From Mobula hypostoma (Eukaryota), in NCBI RefSeq assembly GCF_963921235.1, contig NC_086108.1, forward strand, positions 13,020,001-13,084,000: a stretch of 64,000 nucleotides of DNA. The letters are read 5' to 3'. The translations under genes and the position numbers were made by a program. The notes beneath the pieces are model-generated. The model saw only the letters and a list, made by a program, of their open reading frames with translations. It searched no databases and was not told the DNA's origin. Positions 8,871 through 62,210 of the stretch are shown here, piece by piece (position 1 is the stretch's first letter; each line of letters opens with the position of its first letter).

Positions 8871-8940
8871 ATATGTAGCTATTTCCATTATCTCAGTGGA
8901 CAATGAATTCTTATTGCAAACATTGTGCTGATGCCAGCAG

Positions 8941-21203: not shown

Positions 21204-21326
21204 ACATCAATGAGTGCAGCTGGCCAAGAATCTGTCAGAACGGCAAGTGCATGAACATGAGAGGCAGTTACAGCTGCGTCTGCAACCCTGGCTACGTCCA
21301 AGATACTTCCAAGAGCCGATGCATCT
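21204..21326 (+). CDS. LTBP4: LTBP4-like cbEGF exon (DINECSWPRICQNGKCMNMRGSYSCVCNPGYVQDTSKSRCI)
   Basis: Acceptor ctgcttcttgcag|, donor T|GTAAGT. 123 bp. cbEGF consensus D-x-N-E-C...C-x-N-x-x-G-S-Y-x-C. Confidence 0.93.
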
Positions 21327-24609: not shown

Positions 24610-24774
24610 CACAGCAGGTTATCTCACTGACCCGAGGACCCTGTTACCGCATTTGGAGGAGTGGGTTCTGTTCCCTGCCTGTTGTCCAGAACATCACCAA
24701 ACAGATCTGCTGCTGCAGTCGTGTGGGGAAAGCTTGGGGTCCCAACTGCCAGAGGTGTCCTTCTCTGGGCACAG
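24610..24774 (+). CDS. LTBP4: LTBP4-like TB (8-Cys) domain exon ([55 protein letters not shown])
   Basis: Acceptor ttccag|, donor G|GTAAGC. 165 bp, phase 1-1. [17 protein letters not shown] matches the recalled first LTBP TB domain. Confidence 0.93.
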
Positions 24775-37640: not shown

Positions 37641-38525
37641 ACGAAGATAGGTGGAGGGGTGGGTAGTGCTGAGGAAGCAATGCGATTGTAGCGGAACTTA
37701 GACAAATTGGAAGGATGGGCAAAAAAGTGGTAGATGGAATACAGTGTTGGAAAATGTATGATAATACATTTTGGTAAAAGGAACAATAGTGTGGACTATT
37801 ATCTAAATGGGGAGAAGGTTCAAACATCAGAGATGCAGAGGGACTTGGGAGTCCTCGTGCAAGACTCCCAGAAGGTTAATTTACAGGTTGAATCTGTGGA
37901 CAAGAAGTCAAATGCAATGTTGGCATTTATTTCAAGGGGAATAGAATATAAGAGCAACGAAATAAAACTGAGCCTTTAAAAGACACCAGTCAGGCTGCAC
38001 TTGGAGTATTGTCAACAATTTTGGGCCCCACATCTCAGAAAGGATATGTTGTCATTAGGGTGTCCAGAGGAGGTTCACGAGGATGATTCTGGGAATGAAG
38101 AGGGGCGTTTGGCAGCTTTGGGCCTATACTCACTGGAATTTAGAAGAATGCGTAGGTATCTCATTGAAACCCACCAGATGTTGAAAGGGTTGGATTGGGT
38201 GGATGTGGAGAGGATGTTTCATATTGAGGGGGGTAGGTGTATCTAAAACTAGAGGGCACAACCACAAAATTGAGGACAGACCCTTTAGAACAGAGGTAAG
38301 GGGGATTTTTTTTTGCCTGAGAGTAGTGAATCTGTGGAATGCTCTGCCACAGACTGCGGAAGAGGCCAAGTCCATGCGTATACTCAAGGTGAAAGATGAT
38401 CGTTCCCTGAGAAGGCAGGTGTATAGGGTTGAGTGGGATTCAGGATCTGCCACGATGGAATGGCGGATCAGACTCAATGGGTTGGATGGCCTAATTCTGT
38501 TCTGATGTCTTGTGATCTTATGGTC
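37641..38525 (+). mobile_element. CR1 3' fragment inserted in the pyrimidine tract
   Basis: MEYSVGKCMIIHFGKRN, QRDLGVLV and LGLYSLEFRR motifs, plus CR1 3' end. Confidence 0.88.
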
Positions 38526-38783
38526 TCTCCCCCTCACTCCCAATCACTCTGCTCCACTTATACTCTTTCCCTCTCCCCAATTCTCCCTCTCTTTTCTCCC
38601 ACTCTCCCCTCCTCTTTCCCCCACTCTTTCCTTTCTCCTCTTCCCCTCCTTCACTCCCCCTCTCCTCTTCTCTCCACTTCCCCTCTCGTCACCTTCTCTC
38701 TCCCCCACCCCATCTCCCCCTCTCAGTCTCTTCCCCTTTTGTACAATCTCACTAACTCTTGAGATCTCACTCTCCACCCATAG

Positions 38784-38915
38784 CTCCTCAGCTTCACATC
38801 TGCCTCCGAGTCCCGCAGGTGTGTGGTCCAGGACGCTGCATGATGCGACAGCAGGGGTACACGTGTGTGTGCAACACGGGCTTCCGGCTGAATGCTGAGC
38901 GATCGCGCTGTATCG
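38784..38915 (+). CDS. LTBP4: LTBP4-like non-calcium EGF exon (PQLHICLRVPQVCGPGRCMMRQQGYTCVCNTGFRLNAERSRCI)
   Basis: Acceptor ccacccatag|, donor G|GTGAGT. 132 bp, phase 1-1. Resembles recalled LTBP4 CQRNPQVCGPGRCISRPSGYTCACDSGFRL. Confidence 0.92.
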
Positions 38916-40718: not shown

Positions 40719-40844
40719 ACATGGATGAATGTGGACAAAGGCCTTCACCCTGCCCCAATGGTCGATGCGAGAATGTGGTTGGCAGTTACCGTTGTGTGTG
40801 CTCCAGAGGATTTGTGGCCAATTCTCAAGGCACAGATTGTATTG
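40719..40844 (+). CDS. LTBP4: cbEGF exon A1 (DMDECGQRPSPCPNGRCENVVGSYRCVCSRGFVANSQGTDCI)
   Basis: Acceptor ttttcacag|, donor G|GTAATG. 126 bp, phase 1-1, 6 Cys, calcium-binding consensus. Confidence 0.92.
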
Positions 40845-41656
40845 GTAATGTCAGCAGTTTCTTACACCTCGGCCTCTCTCGATGGGATGGGTGGGGATGG
40901 ATTGAGGGTGGGATGGGGCATTCCATTTGAATGTTGAAACCCTTCGATTGAGTGGATGTGGAGAGGGTGTTTCCTATGGTAGGGGAGTCTACTGCCATAG
41001 GGCACAGCCTCAGAATAGAGGGACTTCCATTTAGGTCATAGATGAGGAGGCATTTCTTTAGACAGATGGTGGTAAATCTCTGGAATTTGTAGCCACAGGC
41101 AGCTGATTCTTGATTAGTCATGACACGAAGGGATATGGGAAGAAGGCAGGAGATTGGGGCTGAGAGGGAAAATGGATCAGCCATGATGAAATGGCTCCTT
41201 TATCTTATGGTCTTATGGTTTTAACTGAAACTCCAGGCAATTGTTGTCACTCGGGCCCAAACAGTAGGACCCAATATCTATCCACCATCTGATCCACAGG
41301 TGCATCTCCCTGACCCTATACAAATGGGGAAACAGGCATCATCCCCCCATGTTCCCAACTCTTCCCACATCCAGAGGACCACAAGGAAAGTGGAAGCAGA
41401 CTCTGTGGAGGGATTTATGGAGTCTGTTAGGTGACAGGATGGACAAAGAGGTTTAACTTTAAATCGAAGACTGGGTGTAATGAGAGAATTAAATAATTAG
41501 AATGTGCCGGGAGCTGGGACAGAATTGTTGGAGTTAAGGAGGGAGGAGATGGTCACCGTGAAATTAAAGGTTAAAACCAAGAGCAGAGGTGAGGGAATTA
41601 TCAGCCATCCCAGGACAGTGATCTCCTAACACTCCATGGATTCTGCCTTCTTTCAG

Positions 41657-41776
41657 ATATTGATGAGTGCTTGAATGAGCTCACTTGTCCAAACTCTGAG
41701 TGTGTGAATTCCATTGGATCTTTCCACTGCCTCCCCTGCTCCACAGGATACCAGATCCGGGATGGAAAGTGTACAG
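41657..41776 (+). CDS. LTBP4: cbEGF exon B1 ([40 protein letters not shown])
   Basis: Acceptor ttctttcag|, donor CAG|GTAAAA. 120 bp, phase 1-1. CxxC spacing as in recalled LTBP4 DVDECENHLACPGQECVNSPGSFQCRTCPSG. Confidence 0.92.
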
Positions 41777-43633
41777 GTAAAACTGTTAGTGTCTCTAAAC
41801 TATAGTACCGAGAGCACTGTGTGCACAGGAGAGACAGCTCTTAGAATCATCAAACATACTCAGCAAATACAGAGAAAATCTCCCTGTAACTGTCACACCA
41901 AACACCTCCAAAACAGACAGTGCAAATTAGATATAGAGTGAATCTCCTTCTACAATATCCCATTAGACATTCCCACTGTAGAGACAATGTAGGCGAGACA
42001 TAAAGGAAACCTCCTTGGTGTTGCTCACAAAACACACCCATGACAGGGATAGCACTGATTAGATGGAGAGGAAAGCTCCCTCTACACTCTGCCATCATTG
42101 GAGGGGCAAAATGAATTAGACATTAAATCTTTTTCCAATGGTTCAGAAGCTGGATTAATGATGAAATAAATCTCCCTTTGTCACATAATGTCACAGAGGG
42201 ACAACATGAGTTGGATATAGAATACATCTTAATGTTCCATTGAACATCCCACAGCAGGAACAGTGTAGATTAGTTGCAGGGTAAATCTCCTTCTAAACTG
42301 TTTTGTCACACCCTCTATGGTAGTGATATTGTATAGTAAGTACAGAAAAAATCTTCCTCTATACTGTTTCGAAGTTCAAAGGTCAAAGTAAATTTTATTA
42401 TCGAACAAAAAGTATGTCACCGTATACCACTCTGAGATTCATTTCCTTGTGGGCATGCTCAACAAACCAATATAGAATCAATGAAAGACTGCCCAACTAC
42501 AGCATTTAACCAGAGTACAGGAGACAACAAACTGTGCAAATGCAAAAAGAAGAAATAAACAAACAATAAACATCCAGAACATGAGATGAAGAGTCCTTGA
42601 TACTGACTCCATTGGTGCTGTAAACTTTTCAATGACAGGGCAAGTGAAGTTGAGTGAAGTTATCACCTCTGGTTTAAGAGCCTGATGGTTGAGGTGTAGT
42701 AACTGTTCCAGAACCTGGTGGAGTTCATCCTGTATCTTCTTCCTGCTGTCAGCAGTAAGAAGAGAGCATGTACTGGGTGACACCAGTTTGGTGTCATCTA
42801 CAAACATACTAATCAGCTCACCTACAATCTCAACCAAATTGTTAATCTATATAATGAGCCACCATCAACCCAGCTCCAATCCCTGTTGTACATTGTTGGT
42901 CACAGGTCTCCTATCTGTAAACCAGCTCTCACACTCACCCTCTGCCTCCTACCTCCAAAACCATTTTGTTTCCAATTTTCTAACTCACCTTGTATTCTAA
43001 ACTTCCTCCACAGCCTTATAAAAGGCTTTGCTATCATATAGGGCCTTATAAAAGGCCTTGCTAAAGTCTATGTAGACAACATCCACCACAGTCTCTAGTC
43101 AATCCTGTTCGTCAGTTTCTCATGAAAAATCTATTGAACTTCTGAAGTGTGATCTCCCATGAGCCATGCTGACTATCCCTAATCAGTCCTTACCTTTCCA
43201 AATGCAACTAGCTCTTAGCCCTCCGATTCCTTACAGTAACTTTCCCTCCAGTGAGTTCAGTGTTCACTGGCCCATGCTTCCTTGACTGGTGAGCGTAGAC
43301 CTTCTTAAATACAGTCACAACGTCAGCAGTCTTCCAGTACCTCACCTGTGGCTAATGAAGATACAGAAAGCGCTACCACAACCCCAGTAATCTCCTTCCT
43401 TCGCTCTCAAACAGCCCTAAAATATATCTGGTCATGCCTGAGGGATTTATCTACCATTATGTGTTACAAGACCAACAGCTGGAGGGCGGCCCCCAATCAA
43501 GCAAGGATGCAACGCTACACCACCTCCAGTGTTACCTCTCCTGGACTGCAGAAGCGGTCAACCCTCGGCTTGAGGCCTGGTCCTCAACGCAACCAAGGCC
43601 ATACATTCCCCTGCCGTCTCTCGTCCCTCCAAA

Positions 43634-45595
43634 TTGTTCATGATGAGGATGTCTCCAAGTTCACGCAAAGGGTCACGAGCTTCATCCACAAGTGCATCGA
43701 GGACATTGTCAGGGTCTATGAAAACCAGAAACCCTGGATCAACAATTGCATGCGAGCTGCACTTACTGCACAGCACAGAGCTTACATTGCATGTGACCAA
43801 CAGGAACTCAAGAAGTGCAGCTACGATCATCAAGGCGGCGAAATGACATTACAGGGACAAGATCCAGACACAACTCTCCACCGACAACACACACAGTTTA
43901 TGGTAAGGTCTGCACATCATCACAGACTTCAAAGCTAAACACAGTGGTGTTTTCCAAGTTCACTACCTCTCTCTCAGTGAGCTAAATCTTCTTTACTCTC
44001 GGTTCGATGTTGCCATCACTGAGTCCCCAGGAGAACCACGAAACGACCTGCTCCTTGGTCATCTCTGAGGCTGAAGGACGCAGGTGTTTCCAATGAGTGG
44101 ACAGTTGCAAGGCTGCAGGACCGGTCGGCATCCCAGGGCGGGTACTCGGGATGTGTGTGGCGCAACTGGCAGGTGTGTTTACAGACATTTTTAATTTCTC
44201 CCTCTCCCAGTGTAGAGTGCCCTCCTGCTTCAAAACATCCACCATTGTCCCTGTACCAAAAAATACCAAAGTAACATGTCTGAATGACTGGTGTCCTGTT
44301 GCACTAACCTCAATAATAACCAAATGCTATGAGAGGCTGGTCAAGTACTACATCTGTAGCATGCTGCCACCCACACTGGACCCCCTACGATTTGCCTACC
44401 GACACAACCGATCAACAGATGGCACAATAGCCACAGCTCTACATACCATCCTTACACATCTGGAGAAGAAGGATACTTCTGTGAGAATGCTGTTCTTGGA
44501 CTACAGTTCAATATTCAACACAATAATTTCCTCCAGACTTGACAAGAAGCTCAGAGACCTCGGCCTTCACCCTGCCTTGTGCAGCTGGATCCTGGACTTC
44601 CTGTCAGATCGCCGGCAGGTGGTAAGAGTGGGCTCCCTCACCTCTGCCCCTCTGACCCTCAACACAGGTGCCCCTCAGGGCTGTGTCCTAAGACCCCTCC
44701 TTTACTCTCTATATACTTACGACTGTGTTGCCATCCACAGCTCCAATCTGCTGATTAAATTTGCTGAGGATACTACATTGATTGGCCTAATCTCAAATAA
44801 TAACGAGGCAGCCAACAGTCATCACCCTGACACAGTGGTGTCAAGGAAACAACCTCTCCCTCAATGTCGCAAAAAACAAAGGATCTGGTTGTGGACTACA
44901 GAAGGAATAGAGACGGGAATAGAGATATTAACCTCAATGGATCTGGGGTTGAGAAGATGAACAGCTTTAAGTTCCTTGGCATATACAGCACCGAAGATCT
45001 CATGTGGTCTGTACGTACCAGCTGTGTGGTGAAAAAAGCACAGCAGTGCCTCTTTCACCTCAGACGGATGAAGAGGTTTAGTATGGGCCCCAAATCCTAA
45101 GAAATTTCTATAGGGGCACAACTGAGAGCATCCTGACTGGCTGCATCACTGCCTGGTATGGGAACTGTACCTCTCTTAATCACAGGACTCTGCAGAGAGT
45201 GGTGCGGACAGCCCAGCGCGTCTATAGATGTGAACTTCCCAATATTCAGGACGTTTACAAATACAGGTGTGTAAAATGGACCCGAAGGATCATTGGTGAC
45301 CTAAACTATCCCAGCAACAATCTATTGCAGCTGCTACCATCCGGGAAACGGTACTGCAGCATAAAATCCAGGACCAACAGGCTCTAGAACAGCTTTGTCC
45401 ACCAGGCCATCAGATTGATTAATTCACACTGATACAATTATATTTCTATGATATATTGATTGTCCTGTTGTACATACCATTTATTGCAAGTTATTATAAA
45501 TTGCACATTGCACATTTAGACAGAGACAAAATGTAAAGATTTTTACTCCTCATGTATATGAAGGATGTAAGTAATAAAGTCAATTCAATTCAGTT
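43634..45595 (+). mobile_element. Rex1/Babar-like LINE, 5'-truncated RT, present only in the B1-A2 intron
   Basis: ORF 44097-44960 (KAAGP.GIPGRVL..C..QLAGVFTDIFN...LFLDYSS.FNTI...GAPQGCVL.P). (CAATT)n tail. Interrupts the unit motif ccaccaaacaa.tgatataa. Confidence 0.88.
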
Positions 45596-45711
45596 CAAAC
45601 AAGTGATATAACGAATTGCTGAGGGAGTTGTTACTGAGTTGAGATGAAGGGAATTCATGCCATCTAGTAGCTGCTTTGGAGTAACACAATGTGGGTACCA
45701 TCTGATGAGCC

Positions 45712-46592
45712 ATACTGATGATACAAAGATAGGTGGAGGTGCAGGTGGTGTAGAGGAAACAGAGAGTCTGCAGAGAGACTTAAATAGTTTAGGGAAATGG
45801 GCAAAGAGGTGGCAAATAAAATACAATGTTGGAAAGTGTATGGTGGAAGAAATAAATAGGCAGACTATTATTTAGATGGGGAGAGAATTCAAAATGCTGA
45901 GATGCAAAGGGACTTGGGAGAACTTGTGCAAGATACCCGAAAGGTTAACCTCCAGGTTGAGTTGGTAGTGAAGAAGGCAAATGAAATGTTGGCATTCATT
46001 TCTAGAAGTATAGAATATAAGAGCAGGAATGTGTAGTTGAGGCACTCGTGAGACCACACTTGGAGTATTGTGTGCAGGTTTAGGCTCTTTATTTTAGAAA
46101 TGATATAATGACATTGGAGAGGGTTCAGAGAAGATTCCAGGAATAAAAGGGTTACTGTATAAGGAATGTGTGGCAGCTCTTGGGCTATATTCCCTGAAGT
46201 TCAGGAGAATGAGGGGTGATCTCACAGAAACATTCCAAATGTTAAAAAGCCTGAACAGACTAGATATGGCAAAATTATTTCCCATGGTAGGGGAGTCTAG
46301 GATAAGAGGACACAATTTCAGGATTGAAGGATACCCTTTGAAAACAGAGGTGCGGAGAAATTACTTTAGTCAGAAGGTGGTAAATCCATGGACTTTGTTG
46401 CTACAATCGGCTGTGGAGACCAAGTCATTGGGTGCATTTAAGGCAGAGATAGATAGGTTCTTGATTAGCCAGGACGACAAAGGGTATGGGAAGAAGGCAG
46501 GGAAGTGGGGATGACTGAAAGAATTGGAACAGCCCATGATTGAATGGCGGAGCAGAATTGGTGGGCTGAATGGCCTCCTGTATTTTATGGTC
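45712..46592 (+). mobile_element. CR1 3' fragment, present only in the B1-A2 intron
   Basis: Starts at DDTKIGG and ends at ttttatggtct. Splits the unit motif gatgagccacaatgtccaactgcc. Confidence 0.85.
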
Positions 46593-46729
46593 TAATGTCC
46601 AACTGCCTGAAGAGTGGTTTAGTGTTGATTCATAACCAATGTCAGAGTGCAGATGCAATCAGACTTGGGTGAGGTATCTAATATTCCCAGGATTATGGGA
46701 TTATGTGTTGTGTTTTGTTTTTTCCACAG

Positions 46730-46855
46730 ACATGGATGAATGTGGACAAAGGCCTTCACCCTGCCCCAATGGTCGATGTGAGAATGTGGTTGGCAGTTAC
46801 CGTTGTGTGTGCTCCAGAGGATTTGTGGCCAATTCTCAAGGCACAGATTGTATTG
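46730..46855 (+). CDS. LTBP4: cbEGF exon A2 (same protein as A1)
   Basis: AG/GT intact. One synonymous difference from A1 (TGC>TGT). Confidence 0.88.
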
Positions 46856-46987
46856 GTAATGTTGGCTGCGTCTTACGCCTCGGCCTCTCTCGATGGAATG
46901 GGTAGGGATGGACTGAGGGTGGGATGGGGAATCCATTTGAATGTTGAAGGCTTCTGTAGAGTGGATGTGGAGAGGATGTTTCCTATG

Positions 46988-47582
46988 ATCATCATCATCA
47001 TCTGATGCCGTGCCCAGTTTGAGCTTTGACTGCCATGGCCCACACACTCCTGTTTCGGGTCAAGTGGATCAATTCACTGGTATTCACTTCCAATTCTCTG
47101 GCTGCTATCTCCATCATAATTTGTCTTTGTCTTCCTCTTGCTTTCTTTCCTTCAATCTTTCCCATAATTACTGTGCATTCCAACTCCTCTTTCCTAATCA
47201 CAAGTCCAGTGAAGTTACGTTGCATTTTCATGATCTCATACATTATTTCTCTTTTTGTGTTTACTCTGTTCATGAAATCCTTGTTAGATATTCATTTCAT
47301 CCATGATATTCTTTGCACCCTCCTCAAAAACCACATCTCTGCTGCTATAATTCGTTTCCTCATGTTACTAGATATTGTCCAACATTCTGAGCCATATAAC
47401 ATAACTGGATAAATGTAACATTTCAGTACTCTGAGGCGGGTTGTCATGCCTAGTTTAGTATTGGTCAGTATACACTTCATTCTTGTAAAGATGTCTTTTG
47501 CCATCCCTATTCTTCTTTTGATGTCCAAGTCGCACCTGACGTCTGATGTCACCCAACTTCCTAAGAAGCAAAAGTTCTGTAT
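46988..47582 (-). mobile_element. RTE-clade LINE 3' fragment, present only in the A2-A3 intron
   Basis: Minus ORFs FCFLGS...DIKRRIGMAK..F...MLYGSECWT and GKIEGKKARGRQR. (GAT)n tail at about 46988-47002. Confidence 0.85.
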
Positions 47583-49349
47583 TATGGTAGTGGAGTCTAA
47601 AGTCAGAGGGCACAGCCTCAGAACAGAGGGATATCCACTTAGAATGGAGATGAAGAGGAATTCTGTAATCCAGAGAATGGTAAATCTGTGGAATACGTTG
47701 TCACAAGCAGCTGAGGAGGCCAAATCATTGGATATATTTAAGGCAGATCTTTCGCTTTGTAATCAGTCAGGGCATGAAGGGATATGGATCGAAGGTAGGA
47801 GATTGGGTCTGAGAGGAAAAAATGGATCAGCCATTATAAAACTACAAGGGAATCAATGAAAACCACCCAACTAGGGTGTTCAACCAGTGTGCAGTAGACA
47901 ACAAACTGCAAATACAAAAAGAAGAAATAATAATAATAGATAAGCACTAAATATTGAAAACATGAGATGAAGTGTGCTAGAAAGTGAGTCCATTGCCTTC
48001 AGGAACATTTCAATGACAGGGCTAGTGAAGTTGAGTGAAGTTATCACCTCTGGTTTAAGAGCCTGATGGTTAAGGGGTAGTAACTGTTCCTGAACCTGGT
48101 TGTGTAAGTCCTGAGGCTCCTGTACCACCTTCCTGATGACAGTAGTAAGAAGAGAGCATGCACTGGGTGGCACCAGTTTGGTGTCATCTACAAACGTACT
48201 AATCAGCTCACCTACAATCTCAACCAAATTGTTAATTTATATAATGAGCCACCATCAACCCAGCTCCAATCGTTGTACATTGTTGGTCACGGGTCTCCAA
48301 TCTGCAAACCAACCCTCACCCTCAAGCTCTGCCTGTTACGACAAAACCCCATTTGAATCCAATTTTCTAACGCGTCTTGTATTCTAACCTTCTTCACCAG
48401 CCTACAGACAGGACCTCGTAAAAGGCCTTGCTAAAGTCTATGTAGACAACATCCACCACACTGCTCAAGTACAACATGTTGGTCACTTCCTCATGAAAAT
48501 CTATCAGACTTCTGAAGCATGATCTCCCATTAACCATGCTGACTATCCATGATCGGTCCTTGCCTTTCCAAATGCAGCTAGCCCTCAGAATCCCTTACAG
48601 AAACTTATCCTCCAGTGGGTTCAGTGTTCACTGGCCTGTGCTTCCTTGACTGGTCCATGTAGCCCTTTTTAAATACAGTCCCGACATCAGCAATCTTCCA
48701 GTAACTCACCTGTGGCAAATGAAGATACAGAATTCACTACCATGACCCCAGCAGTTTTCTTCCTTCCCTACCAAAATAACCTAGAATACACCTGGTCATG
48801 CCCTAGGGATTAATCCACTATTATCTGCTTCAAAACCACTAATGGGAGGGCAGTCCCCAACTGTGCATGAACGCAATGCTACACCACTTCCAGTGTCTCC
48901 TGCCCTGGACTGCAGCAGCCCTAATCTCCTGACTTGTCCCTGTATCTCATCGTTCCCTGACTAATCAAGAATCTATCAACATCTGCCTTAAATATACCCA
49001 ATGACTTGACCTCCACAGTCACCTGTGGAAACAAATTCTACAGATCTGTGGCCTAGTCCTCCCTACAACCAAGGCTACACAACTCCCCCGCTGTCTGTCA
49101 TGCCACCAAACAAATTATATAACAGATTGCTGGGGGAGATGCTACTGAGTTGAGATGAAGGGAATTCATACCACCCACTAACTACTTTAGATTAACTGCA
49201 ATATGTGTACCATCAGAGGAACCACAACGTCCAACTACCTAAAGAGAAGTTTAATGTGGGTTCATAACCAATGTCAGAGTGCAGTTGCAATCAGACTTGG
49301 GTCAGGTATCTAATGTTCCCAGGATTGGAGAGTTTTGTGTTTTCCACAG

Positions 49350-49475
49350 ATATGGATGAATGTGGACAAAGGCCTCCACCCTGCCCCAATGGTCGATGCG
49401 AGAACGTAATTGGCAGTTACCGTTGTGTGTGCTCCAGAGGATTTGTGGCTAATTCTCAAGGCACAGATTGTATTG
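49350..49475 (+). CDS. LTBP4: cbEGF exon A3 (variant RPPP, ENVI)
   Basis: AG/GT intact, 126 bp, open frame, all Cys kept. Confidence 0.88.
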
Positions 49476-50359
49476 GTAATGTCAGCAGTTTCTTACGCCT
49501 CGGCCTCTCTCGATGGGATGGGTGGGGATGGATTGAGGGTGGGATGGAGGAATCCATTTGAATGTTGAAAGACCTCGACAGAGTGGATGTGGAGAGGATG
49601 TTCCTGTGAGGGTGGAATCTAAGACCAGAGAGCACAGCCTCAGAATAGAAGGACATCTATTTATAACAGAGATGTAGAGGAATTTCTTTAGCCAGAGAGA
49701 GGTAAATCTGTAGAATTAGTTGCCACAAGTGGCTGTGGAGGCCAAGTCATTGCATATATTTAAGGCAGACCTTGATAGAATCATGATTAGTCAGGGCATG
49801 AAGCGATACAGACAGAAGGCAGGAGATTGGGGCTGAGAAGGAAATATGGATCAGCCACAATAAAATGGCAGATCAGACTTGATGGGCTAAATGGCCTAAT
49901 TCTGCTCCTATATCATATGGTCTTATGGTCTTAACTGAGTTTCCAGGCAATTGTCATTCTAGCCAGTACACCGCACTAGTATCTATTCAACATCTGACCC
50001 ACAGGTTCATCACCCTGACCCTTTACAAATGAGTGAACAGCCATCTGCTCCCATGTTCCCAGCTCCTCCTCCATCCAAATTAATCACATGGAATGTGGGA
50101 GCAGACCCCATGGAGAAAGATTCATGGAGTCTGTAAGGTGACAGGACGGATAAAGAGGTTTAATTTTAAATTGAAAAATGGGTGTAATGACAGAATTAAT
50201 TGGAATGTGCTGGGAGCTGGGACAGAATTGTTAGAGTTAAAGAGGGAGGAGATGGTCACCATGAAAATGAAGGTTAAAAGCAAGAGCAGGGGTGAGGGAA
50301 TTATCAGCCATCCAGGGACAGTGATCGCCTAACTCTCCATGGATTCTGCTTTCTTTCAG

Positions 50360-50479
50360 ATATTGATGAGTGCTTGAATGAGCTCACTTGTCCAAACTCT
50401 GAGTGTGTGAATTCCATTGGATCTTTCCATTGTCTCCCCTGCCGCACAGGATACCAGATCCGGGATCGAAAGTGTACAG
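50360..50479 (+). CDS. LTBP4: cbEGF exon B2 (variant PCRTGYQIRDRKCT)
   Basis: AG/GT intact, 120 bp, open frame, all Cys kept. Confidence 0.88.
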
Positions 50480-53060
50480 GTAAAACAGTTAGCGTCTCTA
50501 ACCAGTAGAACTTTGAGCCTTGTGCACGTGGGAGTCATCAAACCTACTCAGCAAATAGAGAGAGAAGCTTCCTCTAACTGTCAATGGTTCAATTTAATGT
50601 CAGACAATGCATACAATCTGAATCAGTACTCGTCACAGGCATCCACGAAACAGAAATAAACTCAAAGAATGAATGACAGAAAACATTAGAACTCCAAAGC
50701 CCCCTCTCCCCCTCCCCCACTTGCTCCAGCAAAAACATTGACCCTGCGCCCTGAACCACCCAATTCAAAGTCCCCCAAAGTGACTTTAAGGTAAAGTCCA
50801 TCAAAAACGACAGTCCTTCCCATTCCTTCAGTATCTCAGATAGGCTCTCTCTCAAGCGGGGTTAAAGAGAAATCGCTCCTGAAACAAATGAGTGAGGGAG
50901 ACCAGCAGCTCAGTTTTGATGTCTCATCAAAAACTTCCAAGACAGACAATGCAGATTAGATATGGAGTGAATCTCCTTCTACACTATCCCATTAGACATT
51001 CCCACAGCACGGTCAACACAGACTAGATCTAAAATGAACCTCCACTGCGCTGACCCATCAAACGTTCCCATGACAGGGATAGCACAGAGCAGACAGAGAG
51101 AAAAGCTCCCTCTGCACTCTCCCATCACAGGAGGGACAAAATGAGTTAGGGATTAAATATTTTCCTTCACTATCATTTCAAGTGGTCGAGAAGCCAGATT
51201 AATTAGGAATAAATCTCCCCTTGTCATATACTGTCACAGAGCGACAACGTGAGTTGGGTATAGAGTATGTCTTCATGTTCCATTTAATATCCCACAGCAG
51301 GAACAGTGTAGATTAGTTGTGGGGCAAATCTCCATCTAAACTGCTTTGTCACACCCTCTATGGTGGTGATAGTGTACAGTAGGTACAGAGTAAATCTTTC
51401 TCTATGCTGTTTCGAAGTTCAAAGTAAATTTTACTATCAAACCACAGACGTATATGCCACCATAGATAACCGTGAGAATGATTTTGTAGTTGGCATACTC
51501 AAGAAATCTATGGAATAATAACTACAAGGGACTCAGTGAAAAACCCCCCAACTAGGGTGTTCAACCAGTGTGCAGAAAACAACAAACTGTGCAAATACAA
51601 AAAGAAGAAACAATAATAGTAAATGAATAAGCACTAAATATCGAAAACATGAGATGAAGCATGTTCGAAAATGAGTCCATTGCCTTCGGGAACATTTCAA
51701 TGACAGGGCTAGTGCAGCTGAGTGAAGTTATCACCTCTAGTTTAAGAGACTGATGGTTGAGGGGTAGTTTCTGTTCCCGAACCTGGTGGTGTAAGTCCTG
51801 AGGTTCCAGTAACTTCTTTCTGATGACAGCAGTAAGAAGAGAGCATGTACTGGGTGACACCAGTTTGATGTCATCTACAAACATACTAATCAGCTCACCT
51901 ACAATCTCAACCAAATTGTTAATTTATATAATGAGCCACCATCAACCCAGCACCAATCCCTGTTGTACATTGTTGGTCACAGGTCTCCAATCTGTAAACC
52001 AGCTCTCACACTCGCCCTCACCCTCAATCTCTGCCTCCTACCACCAAACCCTATTTGGATCCAATTTTCTAACTCACCTTGTATTATAATCTTCTTCACC
52101 AGCCTATCATACAGGACCTTGTAAAAGGCCTTGCTGAACTCCATGTAGACAACATCCACCACGCTGCTCAAGTCAATCCTGTTGGTTACTTCCTCATGAA
52201 AAATCTATCAAACTTCTGAACCATGATCTCCCATGAACCATGCTGACTATCCCTAATCAGTCCTTGCATTTACAAATGCAACTAGCTCCTAGTCCTCAAA
52301 ATCCATTCCAGTAACTTGCCCTCCAGTGAGTTCAGTGTTCACTGGGCTGTGCTTCCTTGACTAGTTCATGTAGACCTTCTTAAATACGGTCACAACATCA
52401 GCAATCTTCCAGTACCTCACCTGTGGCTAAAGAAGATACAGAAATCACTACTGCGATCCCAGTAGTTTTCATTCTTTCCTACCAAAATGACCTAGAATAC
52501 ACCTGGTCATGCCCTAGGGATTTATCCACTATTATCTGCTTCAAAACCACCAATGGGAGGACAGCCCCCAACCGTGCATGGACGCAACGCTACACCACCT
52601 CCAGTGTCTCCTTCCCTGGACTGCAGCAGCCCTAATCTCCTGACTTCTCCCTGTATCTCATCATCCCCTGACTAATCAAGAATCTATCAACATCTGCCTT
52701 AAATATACCCAATGACTTGGCCTCCACTGTCACCTGTGGAAACAAATTCTACAGATCTGTGGCCTAGTCCTCACTACAGCCAAGGCTACACAACTCCCCC
52801 GCCATCTGTCGTGCCACCAAACAAATGATATAACAGATTGCTCGGGGAGATGTTACTGAGTTGAGATGAAAGGAATTCATGCCATCCACTACCTACTGTA
52901 GATTAACTGCAATATGTGTACCATCAGGTGAGCCACAATGTCCAACTGCCTAAAGAGTAGATTAGTGTGGATTCATAACCAATGTCAGAGTGCAGTTGTA
53001 ATCAGACTTGGGTCAGGTATCTAATGTTCCCAGGATTGGAGAGTTTTGTGTTTTCCACAG

Positions 53061-53186
53061 ATATGGATGAATGTGGACAAAGACCTTCACCCTGCCCCAA
53101 TGGTCGATGCGAGAACGTGGTTGGCAGTTACCGTTGTGTGTGCTCCAGAGGATTTGTGGCTAATTCTGAAGGCACAGATTGTATTG
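53061..53186 (+). CDS. LTBP4: cbEGF exon A4 (variant NSEGTDCI)
   Basis: AG/GT intact, 126 bp, open frame. Confidence 0.88.
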
Positions 53187-54056
53187 GTAATGTCAGTGGT
53201 TTCTTACACCTCGGCATCTCTCGATGGGATGGGTGGGGATGGACTGAGGGTGGGATGGAGGAATCCATTTGAATGTTGAAAGGCCTCGACAGAGTGGATG
53301 TGGAGAGGATGTTTCCTGTGATGGTGGAATCTAAAACCAGAGAGCACAGCCTCAGAATAGAGGGACATCCATTTATAACAGAGATGAAGAAGAATTACTT
53401 TAGCCAGAGAGAGGTAAATCTGTAGAATTAGTTGCCACAGGTGGCTATGGAGGCCAAATCATTGGATATATTTAAGGCAGACATAGATAGAATTGTGATT
53501 AGTTAAGCATGAAGAGATATGGACAGAAGGCAGGAGATTGGGACTGAGAAGAAAAAATGGATCAGCTGTAATAAAATGGCGGAGCAGACTGGATGGGCTA
53601 AATGGCCTAATTCTGCTCCTATATCTTATGGTCTTAACTGAGTCTCCCAATTGCAGTCACTCCAGCCAGTACACCACCCCAGTATCTATACAGCATCTGA
53701 CCCACAGGTTCATCACCCTGACCCTTTACAAATGGGTAAACTGCCACCTTCCCCCATGTTCCCAGCTCCTCCTCCATACAAAGAATGAGAGGGATTGTGG
53801 GAGCAGGCCCCATGGAGAAAGATTCATGGAGTCTGCAAGGTGACAGGGCAGATAAAGAGGTTTAACTTTAAATTGAAAACAGGCTGTAATGGCAGAATTA
53901 AATAGAATGTGCTGGGAGCTGGGACAGAATTGTTGGAGTTGAAAATGGAGGAGATGGTCACCATGAAAGTAAAGGACCAAGAGCAGAGGTGAGGGAATTA
54001 TCAGCCATCCAGGGACAGTGATCGCCTAACACTCCATGGATTCTGCTTTCTTTCAG

Positions 54057-54176
54057 ATATTGATGAGTGCTTGAATGAGCTCACTTGTCCAAACTCTGAG
54101 TGTGTGAATTCCATTGGATCTTTCCACTGCCTCCCCTGCTCCACAGGATACCAGATCCGGGATGGAAAGTGTACAG
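54057..54176 (+). CDS. LTBP4: cbEGF exon B3 (nucleotide-identical to B1)
   Basis: AG/GT intact, 120 bp, identical to B1 by eye. Confidence 0.88.
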
Positions 54177-56116
54177 GTAAAACTGTTAGCGTCTCTAACC
54201 TGTAGCATTTAGAGTCTTGTGCACATGGGAATCATCAAACCTACTCAGCAAATACAGAGAAAAGCTTCCTCTAACTGTCAATGGTTCAATTTAATGTCGG
54301 ACAATGCATACAATCTGAATCAGTACTCGTCACAGGCATCCACGAAACAGAAATAAACCCAAAGAATGAATGACAGAAAACATTGGAACTCCAAAGCCCC
54401 CTCTCCCCTCCCCCACTTGTTCCAACAACAACATTGATCCTCCTCTCTGAACCCCCAATTCAGAGTCCCCCAAGGTGACCTCAAACTTTGTGACCTAGCA
54501 CAGAATAGACAGAGAGGAAAGCTCTCTCTTCACTCTCCCATCACTGTAGGGACAACATGAGTTAGGGATTAAATCTTTCTCTTCACTATCGTTTCAAGTG
54601 GTCCAGAAGCCAGATGAATTATGGAATAAATCTCCCTTTGTCATCAACTATCACAGGGACAATGTGAGTTGGATATAGAGTATGTCTTCATGTTCCATTG
54701 AACATCCCACAGCAGGAATAAATAAACACATAATATCAAGAACATGAGATGAAGCATATTCGAAAGTGAGTTCATTGCCTGCGGGAACATTTCAATGATA
54801 GGGCAAGTGAAGATGAGTGAAGGTATCACCTCTGGTTTAAGAGCCTGATGGTTGAGGAGTAGTAACTGTTCCTAAACCTGGTTGTGTAAGTCCTGAGGCA
54901 TCTGTAACATCTTCCTGATGATAGCAGTAAGAAGAGAGCATGTACTTGGTGACATCAGTTTGGTGTCATCTACAAGCATACTAATCAGGTCACGTACAAT
55001 CGCAACCAAATTATTAATTTATATAATGAGCCACCATGAACCAAGAACCAGTCCCTGCTGTACATTGTTGGTCACAGGTCTCCAGTCTGTAAAGCAACTC
55101 TCACAGTCACCCCTCTGCCTCGTACCACCAGATCCCTTTTGTATCCAATTTTCTAACTCACCTTGTATTCTAAACTTCCTCCGCAGCCTTATAAAAGGCT
55201 TTGCTATCATATAGGGCCTTATAAAAGGCCTTGCTAAAGTCTATGTAGACAACATCCAACACACTGCTCAAGTCAATCCTGTTGGTCACTTCCTCATGAA
55301 AAACCTATCAAACTTCTAAAGCGTGATCTCCCATGAACCCTGCTGACTATCCCTAATTGGTCCTTGCCTTTCCAAATGCAGCTAGCTCTTAGCCCTCAGA
55401 ATCCCTTACAGTAACTTTCCCTCCAGTGAAGTTTCTGTTCACTGGCATGTGCTTCCTTGGCTGGTCCATGTAGACTTTCTTAAATAAAGTCACAACATCA
55501 GCAATCTTCCAGGACCTCACCCGTGGCTAATGAAGGTACAGAAATCACTACCATAATCCCAATAGTTTTCTTCCTTCCCTACCAAAATAACCTAGAATGC
55601 AACTATTATCTGCTTCAAAACCCCCAACCGAGCATGGCTGCAATGCTACACCACCTCCAGTGTCTCCTCTCCTGGACTGCAGCAGCCCCAATCTCCTGAC
55701 TTCTCCCTGTATCTCATCATTCCCTGACTAATCAAGAATCTATCAACATCTGCCTTAAATATACCCAATGACTTGACCTCCACAGTCACCTGTGGAAACA
55801 AATTCTACAGATCTGTGGCCTAGTCCTCACTACAGCCAAGGCTACACAACTCCCCCGCTGTCTGTCATGCCACCAAACAAGTGATATAATATATTTCTGG
55901 GGGAGATGTTACTGAGTTGAGATGAAGGGAGTTCATGCCACCCACTAACTAATTTGAACTAACTACAATGTGCATACCATCAGATGAGCCACAATGACCA
56001 ACTGCCTAAAGAGCAGTTTAATATGGGTTCATAACCAATGTCAGAGTGCAGTTGCAATCAGACTTGGGTCAGGTATCTAATGTTCCCAGGATTGGAGAGT
56101 TTTGTGTTTTCCACAG

Positions 56117-56242
56117 ATATGGATGAATGTGGACAAAGACCTTCACCCTGTCCCAATGGTCGATGCGAGAACGTGGTTGGCAGTTACCGTTGTGTGTGCT
56201 CCAGAGGATTTGTGGCCAATTCTCAAGACACAGATTGTATTG
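56117..56242 (+). CDS. LTBP4: cbEGF exon A5 (variant NSQDTDCI)
   Basis: AG/GT intact, 126 bp, open frame. Confidence 0.88.
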
Positions 56243-58108
56243 GTAATGCTGACTGCATCTTATGCCTCGGCCTCTCTTGATGGGATGGGTGGGGATGGAT
56301 TGAGGGTGGGATGGAGGAATCTATTTGAATGTTGAAGGCTTCTGTAAAATGCATGTGGAGAGGATATTTCCTATGGTAGTGGATTCTAAAGTCAGAGGGC
56401 ACAGCCTCAGAATAGAGGGACATCCACTTAGAATGGAGATGAAGAGGAATTCTGTAAGCTAGAGAATGGTAAATCTGTGGAATACGTTGTCACAAGCAGC
56501 TGAGGAGGCCAAATCGTTGGATATACTTAAGGCAGATCTTTAGCTTTGTAATCAGTCAGGGCATGAAGGGATACGGACAGAAGGTAGAAGACTGGGGCTG
56601 AGAGGAAAAAATGGATCAGCCATAATAAAACTACAAGGGAATCAATGAAAACCACCCAACTAGGGTGTTCAACCAGTGTGCAAAAGACAACAAACTGTGC
56701 AATTACAGAAAGAAAAAAACAATAATAATAAATAAATAAGCACTAAATATCGAAAACATGAGATGAAGCGTGCTAGAAAGTGAGTACATTGCCTGCAGGA
56801 ACATTTCAATGACAGGGCTAGTGAAGTTCAGTGAAGTTATCACTTCTGGTTTAAGAGCCTGATGGTAACTGTTCCTGAACCTGGTGGTGTAAGTCCTGAG
56901 GTTCCAGTAACTTCATGTACTGGATGACACCAGTTTGGTGTTATCTACAAACATAGTAATCAGCTCACCTACAATCTCAACCAAATTGTTAATTTATATA
57001 ATGAGCCAGCATCAACCCAGCACCAGTCCCTGCTGTACATTGTTGGTCACAGGTCTCCAATCTGTAAACCAATTCTCATGCTCACCCTCTGCCTCCTAAC
57101 ACTAAACCCATTTTGTACCCAATTTTCTAACTCACCTTGTATTCTAACCTTCTTCACCAGCCTACAGACAGGACCTTGTAAAAGGCCTTGCTAAAGTCTA
57201 TGTAGACAACATCCACCACACTGCTCAAGTACAACATGTTGGTCACTTCCTCATGAAAATCTATCAGACTTCTGAAGCATGATCTCCCATTAACCATGCT
57301 GACTATCCATGATCGGTCCTTGCCTTTCCAAATGCAACTAGCCCTCAGAATTCCTTACAGAAACTTATCCTCCAGTGGGTTCAGTGTTCACTGGCCTGTG
57401 CTTCCTTGACTGGTCCATGTAGCCCTTCTTAAATACAGTCCCGACATCAGCAATCTTCCAGTAACTCACCTGTGGCAAATGAAGATACAGAATTCACTAC
57501 CATGACCCCAGCAGTTTTCTTCCTTCCCTACGAAAATGACCTAGAATACACCTGGTCATGCCCTAGGGATTAATCCACTATTATCTGCTTCAAAACCACT
57601 AATGGGAGGGCAGTCCCCAACTGTGCATGAACGCAATGCTACACCACTTCCAGTGTCTCCTCCCCTGGACTGCAGCAGCCCTAATCTCCTGACTTGTCCC
57701 TGTATCTCATCGTTCCCTGACTAATCAAGAATCTATCAACATCTGCCTTAATTTACCCAATTACTTGGCCGCTACAGTCACCTGTGGCAACTAATTCTAC
57801 AGATCTGTGGCCTAGTCCTCACTACAATCAAGGCCACACAACTCCCACGCCGTCTGTCGTGCCACCAAACAAATGATATAACAGATTGCTGGGGGAGATG
57901 TTACTGAGTTGAGATGAAGGGAATTCTTGCCACTCACTAACTACTCTGGATTAACTGCAATATGTGTACCATCAGATGAGCCACAATGTCCATCTGCCTA
58001 AAGAGAAGTTTAATGTGGGTTCATAACCAATGTCAGAGTGCAGTTGCAATCAGACTTGGGTCGGGTATCTAATGTTCCCAGGATTGGAGAGTTTTGTGTT
58101 TTCCACAG

Positions 58109-58234
58109 ATATGGATGAATGTGAACAAAGGCCTTCACCCTGCCCCAATGGTCGATGCGAGAACGTGGTTGGCAGTTACCGTTGTGTGTGCTCCAGAGGA
58201 TTTGTGGCTAATTCTCAAGGCACAGATTGCATTG
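58109..58234 (+). CDS. LTBP4: cbEGF exon A6 (variant DMDECEQR)
   Basis: AG/GT intact, 126 bp, open frame. Confidence 0.88.
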
Positions 58235-59111
58235 GTAATGTCAGCAGTTTCTTACACCTCGGTCTCTCTCGATGGGATGGGTGGGGATGGATTGAGGGTG
58301 GGATGGGGGAATCCATTTGAATGTTGAAAGGCCTCGACAGGGTGGATGTGGAGAGGATGTTTCCTATGATGGTGGAATCTAAGCCTCAGAATAGAGGGAC
58401 ATCTATTTATAACAGAGATGAAGAGGAATTTCTTTAGCCAGAGAGAGTTAAGTCTGTAGAATTAGTTGCCACAAGTGGCTGTGGAGGCCAAGTCATTCGA
58501 TATATTCAAGGCAGAAGTTGATAGAATTGTGATTAGTCAGGGCATGAAGAGATACTGATAGAAAGCAGGAGACTGGGGCTGAGAAGAAAAAATGGATCAG
58601 CCACAAGAAAATGGCAGATCGGACTCGATGGGCTAAATGGCCTAATTCTGCTCCTATATCATATGGTCTTATGGTCTTAGCTGAGTCTCCAGGCAATTGT
58701 AGTCATTCTAGCCAGTACACCGCCCCAGTATCTATCCAACATCTGACCCACAGGTTCATCACCCTGACCCTCTACAAATGAGTGAACAGCCATCTGCTCC
58801 CATGTTCCCAGCTGCTCCTCCTCCATCCAAATTAATCACACGGAATGTGGGAGCAGACCCCATGGAGAAAGATTCATGGAGTCTGTAAGGTGACAGGACA
58901 GATAAAGAGGTTTAGTTTTAAATTGAAGACAGGCTGTAATGGCAGAATTAATTAGAATGTGCATGGAGCTGGGACAGAATTGTTGGAGTTAAAGAGGGAG
59001 AAGATGGTCACCATGAAATTAAAGTTTAAAACCAAGAGCAGAGGTGAGGGAATTATCAGCCATCCAGGGACAGTGATCTCCTAACACTCCATGGATTCTG
59101 CTTTCTTTCAG

Positions 59112-59231
59112 ATATTGATGAGTGCTTGAATGAGCTCACTTGTCCAAACTCTGAGTGTGTGAATTCCATTGGATCTTATCACTGCCTCCCCTGCTCCACA
59201 GGATACCAGATCCGGGATGGAAAGTGTACAG
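59112..59231 (+). CDS. LTBP4: cbEGF exon B4 (variant GSYHC)
   Basis: AG/GT intact, 120 bp. The F>Y change keeps the consensus aromatic residue. Confidence 0.88.
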
Positions 59232-60659
59232 GTAAAACAGTTAGTGCCTCTAACCTGTAGCATTTAGAGTCTTGTGCACATGGGAATCATCAAACCTACT
59301 CAGCAAATACAGAGAAAAGCTTTCTCTAACTGTCAATGGTTCAATTTAATGGCGGACAATGCATACAATCTGAATCAGAACTCTTCACAGACATCCCCAA
59401 AACAGAAAGAAAACCCAAAGAATGAATGACAGAAAACTTTAGAACTCCAAAGCCCCCTCTCCCCTCCCCCACTTGCTCCAAGATCCTCCTCTCTGAACCC
59501 CCAATTCAGAGTCCCCCAAAGTGACCTCGAACTTTCTGACCTAGCACAGAGTAGACAGAGAGGAAAGCTCTCTCTGCAATCTCCCATCACTGTAGGGACA
59601 ACATGAGTTAGGGATTAAATATTTTTCTTCACTATCATTTCAAGTGGTCCAGAAGCCAGATGAATTATGGAATAAATCTCCCTTTGTCATCTACTATCAC
59701 AGGGACAACGTGAGTTGGGTATAGAGTATGTCTTCATGTTCCATTGAACATCCCACAGCAGGAACAGTGTAGATTAGTTGTGGTGCAAATCTCCATCTAA
59801 ACTGTTTTGTTACACCCACTTTGGTAGTGATATTGTCGAGTAGGTACAGAGAAAATCTTGCTCCATACTCTTTGGAAGTTCAAAGTAAATTTTATTATCA
59901 AACCTCATATATGTCACCCTGAGAATCATTTTGTAGTGGGCATACTCAAGAAATCTATGGAATAATAACTACAAGGGACTCAGTGAAAAACCCCCCAACT
60001 AGGGTGTTCAACCAGTGTGCAGAAAACAACAAACTGTGCAAATACAAAAAGAAGAAACAATAATAATAAATAAATAAGCAATAAATATCGGCAACATGAG
60101 ATGAAGCGTGTTCAAAAGTGAGTCCATTGCCTGCGGGAACATTTCAATGACAGGGCTAGTGAAGTTATCACCTCTGGTTTAAGAGCCTGATGGTTGAGGG
60201 GTAGTTTCTGTTCCTGAACCTGGTGGTGTAAGTCCTGAGGCTCCTGTACTTTCTTCCTGATGACAGCAGTAAGAAGAGAGCATGCGCTGGGTGACACCAG
60301 TTTGGTGTCATCTACAAACATACTAATCAGGTTATCTGCAATCTCAACCAAATTGTTAATTTATACAATGAGACACCATGAACCCAGCACCAAATCCTGC
60401 TGTACTTTGTTGGTCACAGGTCTCCAATCTGTAAACCAACCGTCACCCTCACCCTCTGCCTCTTACCACCAACCCATCATACTGGTCATGCCCAGGGATT
60501 TATGCACTATTATGTGCTTCAAGACCACCAACTGGAGGGCAGCCCCCAACCAAGCAAGGACTCACTACACCACCTCCAGTGTCTCCTCTCCTGGACTGCA
60601 GCAGCAGGGAACCCCACAGTTGTCTTGTCTTGTCCATACTGCACCAACCGCAGCCGCTG

Positions 60660-60805
60660 GGCTATAAACGTGCAGGAGCAATGTGTGGTTAAGTACCTTG
60701 CTCAAGGACACAACACGCTGTCTCCAAATGCAATTCTCTCCTCAGCTGCAGCTTGAACTCACGACCTTCAGATCACTAGTCCAACGCCTCAACCACTTCG
60801 CCATG
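60660..60805 (-). mobile_element. tRNA-derived SINE head, present only in the B4-A7 intron
   Basis: Minus strand reads tggcgaagtgg (A-box-like), gagttcaagc (B-box-like), then gtgtccttgagcaaggtacttaa. Confidence 0.65.
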
Positions 60806-61105
60806 AGGCTTAGTCGTCGCTAAAACCGAGATTGCGCTGCTCCCCTGTCGTCTGTCATGCCACCAAACAAAGGATACAACAAATTGCTGGGGGAATGTTA
60901 CTGAGTTAAGATGAAGAGGATTATTGCCATCTAGTAGCTTCTTTGGAGTAACTACAATGTGCATACCATCAGATGAGCCACAATGACCAACTGCCTAAAG
61001 AGCAGTTTAATATGGGTTCATAACCAATGTCAGAGTGCAGTTGCAATCAGACTTGGGTCAGGTATCTAATGTTCCCAAGATTGGAGAGTTTTGTGTTTTC
61101 CACAG

Positions 61106-61231
61106 ATATGGATGAATGTGGACAAAGGCCTTCACCCTGCCCCAATGGTCGATGCGAGAACGTGGTTGGCAGTTACCGTTGTGTGTGCTCCAGAGGATTT
61201 GTGGCCAATTCTCAAGGCACAGATTGTACTG
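61106..61231 (+). CDS. LTBP4: cbEGF exon A7 (variant GTDCT)
   Basis: AG/GT intact, 126 bp, open frame. Confidence 0.88.
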
Positions 61232-62090
61232 GTAATGTCAGCAGTTTCTTACACCTCGGCCTCTCTCGATGGGATGGGTGGGGATGGACTGAGGGTGGGA
61301 TGGGAGAATCTATTTGAATGTTGAAATGTCTCCACAGAGTGGATGTGGAGAGGCTGTTTCCTGTGATGGTGGAATCTAAAGTCAGAAAGCTCAGCCTCAG
61401 AAGAGAGGGACATCTACTTAGAATGGAGATCAGGAGGAATTTTTTAAACCAGAGAATGGTAAATCTGTGTAATACATTGTCACAAGCAGTTGAGGAGGCC
61501 AAATCATTGGGTATATTTAAGGCCAATGTTTAGATTTGTAATTAGTCAGGGCATGAAGGGATATGGAAAGAAGGCAGAATATTGCAGCTGAGAGGGAAAA
61601 TGAATCAGCCATGATGAAATAGCTTAAATCTGTTCCTGTACCTTATCGTCTTTTGGTCTTAACCGAGTCTCCAGGCAATTGTTGTCACTCTAGCCAGAAC
61701 AGTGGGGCCCAGTATCTATCTAACATCTGACCCACATGTACACCACTCTGACCCCTTACAAATGAGGAAACAGGCATCTGCCCCCATATTCCCAGCTCTT
61801 CTCACATCCAGAGGAACACAGGGAACGTGGGAGCAAACCTGTGGAGGAAGTTTCATAGAGTCTGTAAGGTGACAGGACAGATAAAGAGTATTAATTTTAA
61901 GTTGAAGACAGGGTGTAATGACAGAATTAATTGGAATGTGCTGGGAGCTGCGGCAGAATTGTTGGAGTTAAAGAGGGAGAAGATGGTCACCATGAAATTA
62001 AAGGTTAAAACCAAGAGCAGAGGTGAGGGAATTATCAGTCATCCAAGGACAGTGATCGCCTAACACTCCATGGATTCTGCTTTCTTTCAG

Positions 62091-62210
62091 ATATTGATGA
62101 GTGCTTGGACGAGCTCACTTGTCCAAACTCTGAGTGTGTGAATTCCATTGGATCTTTCCACTGCCTCCCCTGCCCCACAGGATACCAGATCCGGGATCGA
62201 AAGTGTACAG
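62091..62210 (+). CDS. LTBP4: cbEGF exon B5 (variant CLDEL...PCPTGYQIRDRKCT)
   Basis: AG/GT intact, 120 bp, open frame. Confidence 0.88.

Follow-up and report, generated by a model that had tools for sequence, protein, structure and literature searches.

The 64,000-nucleotide (nt) stretch of the Mobula hypostoma genome analyzed here (contig NC_086108.1, positions 13,020,001 to 13,084,000, forward strand; "the window") contains twelve duplicated exons which, judged by their sequence, are calcium-binding EGF (cbEGF) exons of the LTBP4 gene. The array runs A B A A B A B A A B A B (40719..62210), with seven A exons of 126 nt and five B exons of 120 nt. We think it probable that the array grew by tandem duplication of an A-intron-B unit, and that short exon-centered conversion tracts together with purifying selection have since kept the copies alike. 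Positions are coordinates within the window unless marked L001 to L004, which denote neighboring genome stretches.

Twelve intact exons

The exons of the array are listed below. Amino acid changes are those of single copies, and a second Mobula species (P0130) is used for comparison.

40719..40844, + strand: exon A1 (cbEGF), found with Pfam; residues 661-702 of the protein XP_062919690.1 (P0131)
41657..41776, + strand: exon B1 (cbEGF), found with Pfam; identical to B3
46730..46855, + strand: exon A2; 1/126 positions differ from A1, downstream intron closest to A5 (15/252)
49350..49475, + strand: exon A3; S>P and V>I, both also in the second Mobula species
50360..50479, + strand: exon B2; S>R and G>R
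53061..53186, + strand: exon A4; Q>E
54057..54176, + strand: exon B3; identical to B1
56117..56242, + strand: exon A5; G>D, absent from the second Mobula
58109..58234, + strand: exon A6; G>E, absent from the second Mobula
59112..59231, + strand: exon B4; F>Y, absent from the second Mobula
61106..61231, + strand: exon A7; I>T
62091..62210, + strand: exon B5, the last of the array; N>D, S>P and G>R

All twelve exons have AG and GT at their ends, are in phase 1-1 and contain no indels or stops. Six Cys with EGF spacing and the motifs D-x-D-E and C-x-N-x-x-G-S-[FY] are present in each of them. An earlier note on this DNA, made from the sequence alone, had reported that splice sites, length, Cys and motifs are kept in all copies, and our re-check agrees for 12 of 12. 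Its statements that B1 equals B3 and that A1 and A2 are one silent base apart also hold. Its list of substitutions is exact for amino acids but omits most silent changes, as the variable sites over all A and B copies comprise 12 silent and 11 replacement sites. The A and B copies are 95-96% identical in amino acids. All twelve fit the calcium consensus D/N-x-D/N-E/Q...D/N...Y/F quoted in PMC9805176, and calcium binding is predicted on this basis. The EGF_CA family (PF07645) scored above the Pfam cut-off for A1 and B1, the two of the twelve exons that were scanned. The Ser of the relaxed POGLUT2/3 glycosylation consensus, as worded in PMC13756544, is present in all twelve copies. No further A or B copies were found in the species' own genome: 7/7 A and 5/5 B matches lie inside the window.

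Diverged introns around similar exons

The array can be divided into five complete A-intron-B units and two solo A units, in which an A-downstream intron is joined to a B-downstream intron. The earlier note had called the introns decayed. The substitutions and repeat insertions behind this claim are real, but the term overstates a divergence of ~2-25%, as the A-B introns still align at 75-92% identity. Deep intron differs by ~15-25% in old pairs and by ~2-15% in young pairs, and the deep-intron tree is resolved, with units 2, 3 and 4 as young relatives and units 1 and 5 as old ones. Divergence drops to ~4-6% within 50-100 nt of the exons and to 3-4% in the exons, in old and young pairs alike, and the exon trees are star-like, with lengths of 0.08-0.09. 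The five-unit tree has a length of 0.417 in unique deep intron and 0.444 in the part derived from a long interspersed nuclear element (LINE), compared with 0.089 for exon A and 0.077 for exon B. Exons are therefore far less diverged than introns (0.089 and 0.077 vs 0.42-0.44), beyond chance, which answers a comparison that the earlier note had proposed. An explanation of this contrast as a mere effect of fast-changing repeats was rejected, given the lengths of 0.417 in unique deep intron and 0.444 in LINE.

Two insertions were found upstream of A2:

43966..45162, + strand: LINE-like insertion confined to the B1-A2 intron, its reverse-transcriptase-like frame broken; repeated outside the array, reverse-transcriptase likeness judged by eye
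45717..46593, + strand: interspersed repeat, 136 nt upstream of A2 and absent from other units

Repeat insertions flank A2 on both sides, and its acceptor region (46700-46729) is 12 nt longer than in the six other A copies; A2 may be the weakest-spliced copy.

Probable overwriting of old differences near the exons

Variable sites private to unit 1, unit 5 or both were assigned to an old class and those within units 2-4 to a young class, and near-flank counts exclude the splice signals. Old-class differences occur at 124 of 628 deep-intron sites (0.197 per site) and at 10 of 217 near-flank sites (0.046 per site, P 1e-8). Young-class differences occur at 50/628 and 14/217 sites, respectively (P 0.55). 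For silent exon sites, 4 old-class changes are seen against 13.3 predicted by the introns (P 0.003), and 6 young-class changes against 5.4. Since constraint would lower both classes, the erasure of only the old class points to overwriting. Silent and intron divergence are thus locally erased, as in concerted evolution. The second comparison proposed by the earlier note, silent against intron divergence, gives the pattern of conversion, and both halves of its suggestion, selection and/or exon-centered conversion, find support, conversion in the old-class silent deficit and selection in the shortage of replacements described below.

Three likely tracts conflict with the intron tree, placing A2 with A1, A5 with A7, and B2 with B5. 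Two of them can be delimited as follows:

50443..50558, + strand: likely conversion tract where B2 goes with B5 and not with B3/B4; spans the 3′ end of the exon and ~80 nt of intron, 9 shared sites and 1 discordant
55960..56088, + strand: likely conversion tract, a 129-nt intron stretch upstream of A5 identical to that upstream of A7

Exon A2 differs from A1 at 1 of 126 positions and from A5 at 6, and its downstream intron is nearest to that of A5 (15/252 vs 34/206). B2 sides with B5 between exon position 84 and about +80, with 2/67 intron differences inside the tract and 26/120 beyond it (P 0.0004). Between A5 and A7, 0/94 positions differ near the exon, 17/115 further up and 34/251 downstream.

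These observations bear on an account without conversion, in which selection acts on the codons and on ~100 nt of splice-regulatory flank and has recently been relaxed in the three youngest units. Conserved flanks are common around cassette exons, and the low-divergence zone here hugs the splice sites; the weak run test described below also fits such an account. However, constraint cannot switch the nearest relative of a copy, as seen for the A2 exon with A1, the A5 flank with A7 and the B2 tract with B5, nor can it explain a derived I>V change common to both copies of exon G (below) in one species. Young-class changes also occur at the full intron rate in the same flanks. We therefore regard this account as very unlikely.

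A downstream exon pair as internal control

The same gene contains a second exon duplication, in the order F1 G1 F2 G2:

L002:8556-8684: exon F1
L003:6896-7021: exon G1
L004:430-558: exon F2
L004:1100-1225: exon G2

Beyond the exons, likeness between the F or G copies extends for 90 nt of flank at most. Their introns measure 8.2 kb and 539 nt, and the middles of these do not align. The FGFG order is also found in sawfish and amphibians, so the duplication is likely of old date. A single silent base separates G2 from G1. In M. hypostoma both of them read DV, and the four other batoids showing two G copies have DI in each; by sequence comparison the shared I>V is a derived change common to the copies. 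F2 and F1 are identical at 122 of 129 positions, and Mobula-specific residues are common to both. Derived changes shared by copies within a species are thus seen in G1/G2 (I>V), in F1/F2 (the Mobula residues), and in silent letters of a public sequencing run, X9 (below).

Of the derived replacements in F2, four in all, one removes a Cys and another adds one; F1 carries two derived replacements (polarized with the second Mobula). F2 is absent from 4/4 myliobatiform annotations. It apparently resembles a pseudo-exon, dead or dying though recently homogenized. Conversion acts on exon islands in the ray LTBP4, and the A and B copies do not look like F2. Because conversion can keep an unused copy intact, as F2 illustrates, an intact exon is no proof of use. 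The claim that all twelve A and B exons are functional therefore stands as far as they are intact and likely functional, but intactness does not establish the use of each copy.

The mosaic could also be the product of recurrent unequal crossing-over at breakpoints within or close to exons, which would give chimeric units in place of short non-reciprocal tracts. Copy number and order do differ between Mobula and dasyatid stingrays, and the solo A units join an A-downstream to a B-downstream intron. But each mosaic tract returns to its original partner on both sides within ~100-200 nt, so two close crossovers would be needed each time, and the F and G copies are homogenized though their introns cannot be aligned. 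Crossing-over as the source of the mosaic is in our judgment very improbable.

Evidence for purifying selection on the encoded domains

Replacement and silent changes stand at 11:12 where ~73% replacements are expected (P 0.01), with a ratio of replacement to silent rates (dN/dS) of 0.34. In the young class, 6 replacements are seen against 14.2 expected (P 0.012). Replacements are thus scarce even in the young class, which argues for selection. Across 50 A/B domains of four rays, none of the 30 distinct amino acid changes falls on a Cys (P 0.009), and the changes at calcium-motif sites are just D>N and F>Y, both within the consensus. Between the two Mobula species, the array differs at 9/494 residues, on a par with the rest of the protein (2/221, 9/296 and 9/484). 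Nine of the 12 copy-specific amino acid changes of M. hypostoma are common to both species.

Splicing evidence from public contigs

Eighteen public runs contain the 3′ end of the gene, none of them recorded as RNA. Four runs, one per organism, were compared with E0-A1-B1, where E0 is the exon before the array:

38784..38915, + strand: single-copy EGF exon E0, just upstream of the array; covered as a block by contigs in 3/4 runs

Contigs were called spliced from their joints and the lack of intron cover. They cover A and B in 4/4 runs and unique intron bins in 0/4. The A-B joint with GT..AG is found in three of the four runs, and the fourth has two other letters between the exons. A B-to-A joint is found in 4/4 runs and an A-to-A joint in 2/4. 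Such A-B, B-A and A-A joints are expected from serial splicing of the array. In run X5, the letter typical of B2 and B5 (B position 84) is present at 55/98 depth; it is the sole copy-specific letter among the matches listed. Three silent letters in A, each at full depth, are specific to run X9.

Mutually exclusive splicing usually arises from tandem exons that are nearly identical (PMC8373072). However, mutually exclusive exons contribute one copy per transcript, and the contigs contain A-A, A-B and B-A joints; the copies are also too alike to be useful alternatives. An assembly artifact is at odds with introns that are up to 25% different and carry unit-specific insertions, and with the same order being annotated in a second species. 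We give practically no weight to either of these explanations.

A further alternative is that conversion maintains the array while several inner copies seldom or never enter the transcript, staying intact through overwriting by working copies. F2, near-identical to F1 yet damaged and unannotated, looks like a case of this kind in the same gene, and isoform models of the stingray Hypanus leave out one A or B exon, or five A exons. In addition, dN/dS is higher in the young class (~0.4) than in the old class (~0.2). Against this, young-class replacements are still short of expectation (6 vs 14.2), most copy-specific changes (9/12) are kept in the second Mobula with no Cys lost, and the spliced contigs contain A-A and B-A joints and a B2/B5-type letter. 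We consider this alternative unlikely.

Considerations against the proposed history

Several points weigh against duplication followed by conversion and selection. The counts are small. The flank windows and tract ends were picked after viewing the alignment, the classes were derived from the deep-intron tree, and the silent old:young ratio by itself gives P 0.07. The permutation run test is weak (B2-B5 P 0.03-0.04, B3-B5 0.03 and B4-B5 0.01, uncorrected for 6 pairs). For A and B, lineage-specific duplication could equally yield the sharing of changes within a species. The splicing evidence has its own weak points: the letter specific to A1/A2 at A position 56 is seen in 0/4 runs, X5 is flagged "probably DNA", and no run matches all sampled words (best 0.85), so the runs may be other species. 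The B-A and A-A joints could stem from circular RNA, and RefSeq models are predictions and no independent proof. Finally, the extra length of the rod may be adaptive or merely tolerated.

Among the B units, a GENECONV-like run test gave a clearly significant result for B2-B3 (+92 to +240) only. As the run test is weak, the case for conversion rests on the class test and the direct contrasts. The absence of the position-56 letter is hardly informative, since contigs drop variants and the runs may come from other species.

Gene identity and surroundings

The remaining EGF and TB exons lie on the same strand in the neighboring stretches, out to ~75 kb beyond the window. Three further exons help to place the array:

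21204..21326, + strand: single-copy cbEGF exon of LTBP4 preceding a TB domain; Pfam EGF_CA above cut-off, matches batoid LTBP4 proteins
24610..24774, + strand: exon for most of a TB (8-Cys) domain; Pfam TB above cut-off, PDB matches to fibrillin and LTBP1 TB
L001:2056, + strand: next EGF exon C, past the window end

A protein search with exon A gave 18 matches, 14 named LTBP4, one LTBP1-like, and three unnamed or with an incomplete visible name. XP_062919690.1 (RefSeq, Mobula hypostoma, named LTBP4-like) contains all 12 translations letter for letter and in order, so the gene is the devil-ray LTBP4 and the array is already in the automatic annotation. TB domains interleaved with cbEGF runs in a protein of ~1300-2000 residues place it in the LTBP family, and its closest annotated relatives are LTBP4, not LTBP1-3, though some chondrichthyan orthologues carry the label LTBP1-like. 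A Numb-family gene (NUMB and NUMBL were not distinguished) lies on the same contig, 8.8 Mb away; the human LTBP4 neighborhood presumably includes NUMBL. According to PMC9805176, the human protein comprises 16 EGF-like and four TB domains, and cutis laxa has been linked to the loss of one calcium motif. LTBP4 serves elastic fiber assembly and TGF-beta storage and links fibulin-elastin complexes to fibrillin, according to PMC6943813. The ray gene shares with other vertebrate LTBP4 genes the TB/cbEGF domain order and one phase 1-1 exon per EGF. It differs in having 7 A and 5 B copies, whereas amphibians have 3-4 old, diverged A-type copies and one B, and most sharks have one of each.

Repeats were also noted in the surroundings. 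A 31-bp minisatellite lies at 8170-8900 (~23 copies, 85% matches). A C/T-rich low-complexity tract of 1.4 kb lies at 36285-37639, and a shorter one at 38525-38740 ends just before E0. Two 865-nt copies at L004:2608-3471 and L004:9117-9979 are 96.8% identical and are probably a young repeat insertion.

Arrays in other species

The comparison covered 141 proteins. Domains were parsed in 42 that are LTBP4-like, and each was given the type with the best alignment score, a rough guide for distant species. The protein listing is ranked by score, which favors repeat-rich proteins, so it does not give an unbiased count. The second Mobula species has the same A/B order as M. hypostoma. Its third B domain carries the B5-typical P and R, and here B3 equals B1; a species-specific conversion is likely. 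A date of ~20 million years ago is given for a pair of mobulids in bioRxiv 10.64898/2026.10.27.761883; it is no more than a guide to the minimum age of the array order, and the dated pair may not match the second Mobula used here.

The stingrays Hypanus sabinus and Hemitrygon have the order ABAAAAAABABAB (9 A, 4 B). Like the second Mobula, they have near-identical A and B domains in tandem, but at the protein level the dasyatid arrays differ from Mobula in copy number, order and residues, with frequent residues of their own (V at residue 2 of A, T/A at residue 42 of A, V/I/A at residue 10 of B). Hypanus isoform models (P0001, P0128, P0129, P0132, P0134, P0137, P0138) skip a single A, B or G, or five A in a row. 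As all exons are in phase 1-1, exons can be skipped without a frameshift, and these predicted models suggest frame-neutral length variants.

Of the other cartilaginous fishes, 7/8 carry a single A and a single B, and three identical A copies are found in Scyliorhinus torazame. M. hypostoma has 19 predicted cbEGF domains between the hinge and the third TB, sawfish has 10, and most sharks have 8. Long A/B runs of their own are found in coelacanth (up to 13 A), paddlefish, sturgeon, three eels, two catfish, a mormyrid, pike and two salmonids, and copy identity within species in the non-ray expansions ranges from 0.43 to 0.97. From these sequences, the A/B stretch appears to have lengthened separately in several other fish groups. 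The proteins with such expansions, that of one catshark included, are P0019, P0048, P0075, P0078, P0027, P0080, P0082, P0096, P0102, P0110, P0122, P0124 and P0067.

Discussion

The history that we favor, duplication followed by conversion and selection, could have proceeded as follows. Unequal crossing-over between units, possibly aided by shared LINE pieces, would have multiplied and reshuffled the A-B copies in the ray lineage. The phase 1-1 structure observed in every exon would let whole domains be added without a frameshift, and selection, supported for the set of copies, would keep each domain foldable. Exons under selection would remain the best substrate for non-allelic repair, and conversion tracts of ~100-400 nt would overwrite exons and their near flanks while the deep introns drift apart. 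If most transcripts include most copies, the protein would have 19 cbEGF domains and a longer, calcium-stiffened spacer. Calcium renders cbEGF links fairly linear, as described in PMC13756544, so extra domains would lengthen the spacer.

The class of mechanism is known, and the protein is already in RefSeq. Domain number has changed by tandem exon duplication, with homogenization within species, in LPA kringle IV-2, nebulin, titin blocks, spidroin repeats and Dscam clusters. Blocks of the LPA, nebulin, titin and spidroin type are mostly alike over exon and intron; in the ray, likeness is confined to exon islands. Unlike Dscam exons, the ray copies are spliced in series. Primate L/M opsins, as covered in PMC3924837, show a similar mosaic of homogenized and diverged parts, with lineage-specific changes common to copies. 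In the opsins, however, introns are homogenized and an exon is held apart by selection, the reverse of what is seen here. The ray case also lies within one gene and persists where introns no longer align (F/G). In the literature searched, with subscription journals outside its coverage, we found no description of the array or of LTBP4 EGF-number variation. LTBP is mentioned 0 times in the main text of bioRxiv 10.64898/2026.10.27.761883 as far as available, and the supplements of that work could list the gene.

The array is an unusually clean natural record of conversion on exon islands within one gene, and it illustrates that a copy in a homogenized array may be intact without being used. LTBP4 is a cutis laxa gene. 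Among jawed vertebrates its central EGF domains number between 8 and well over 20, a variation that makes the role of spacer length testable.

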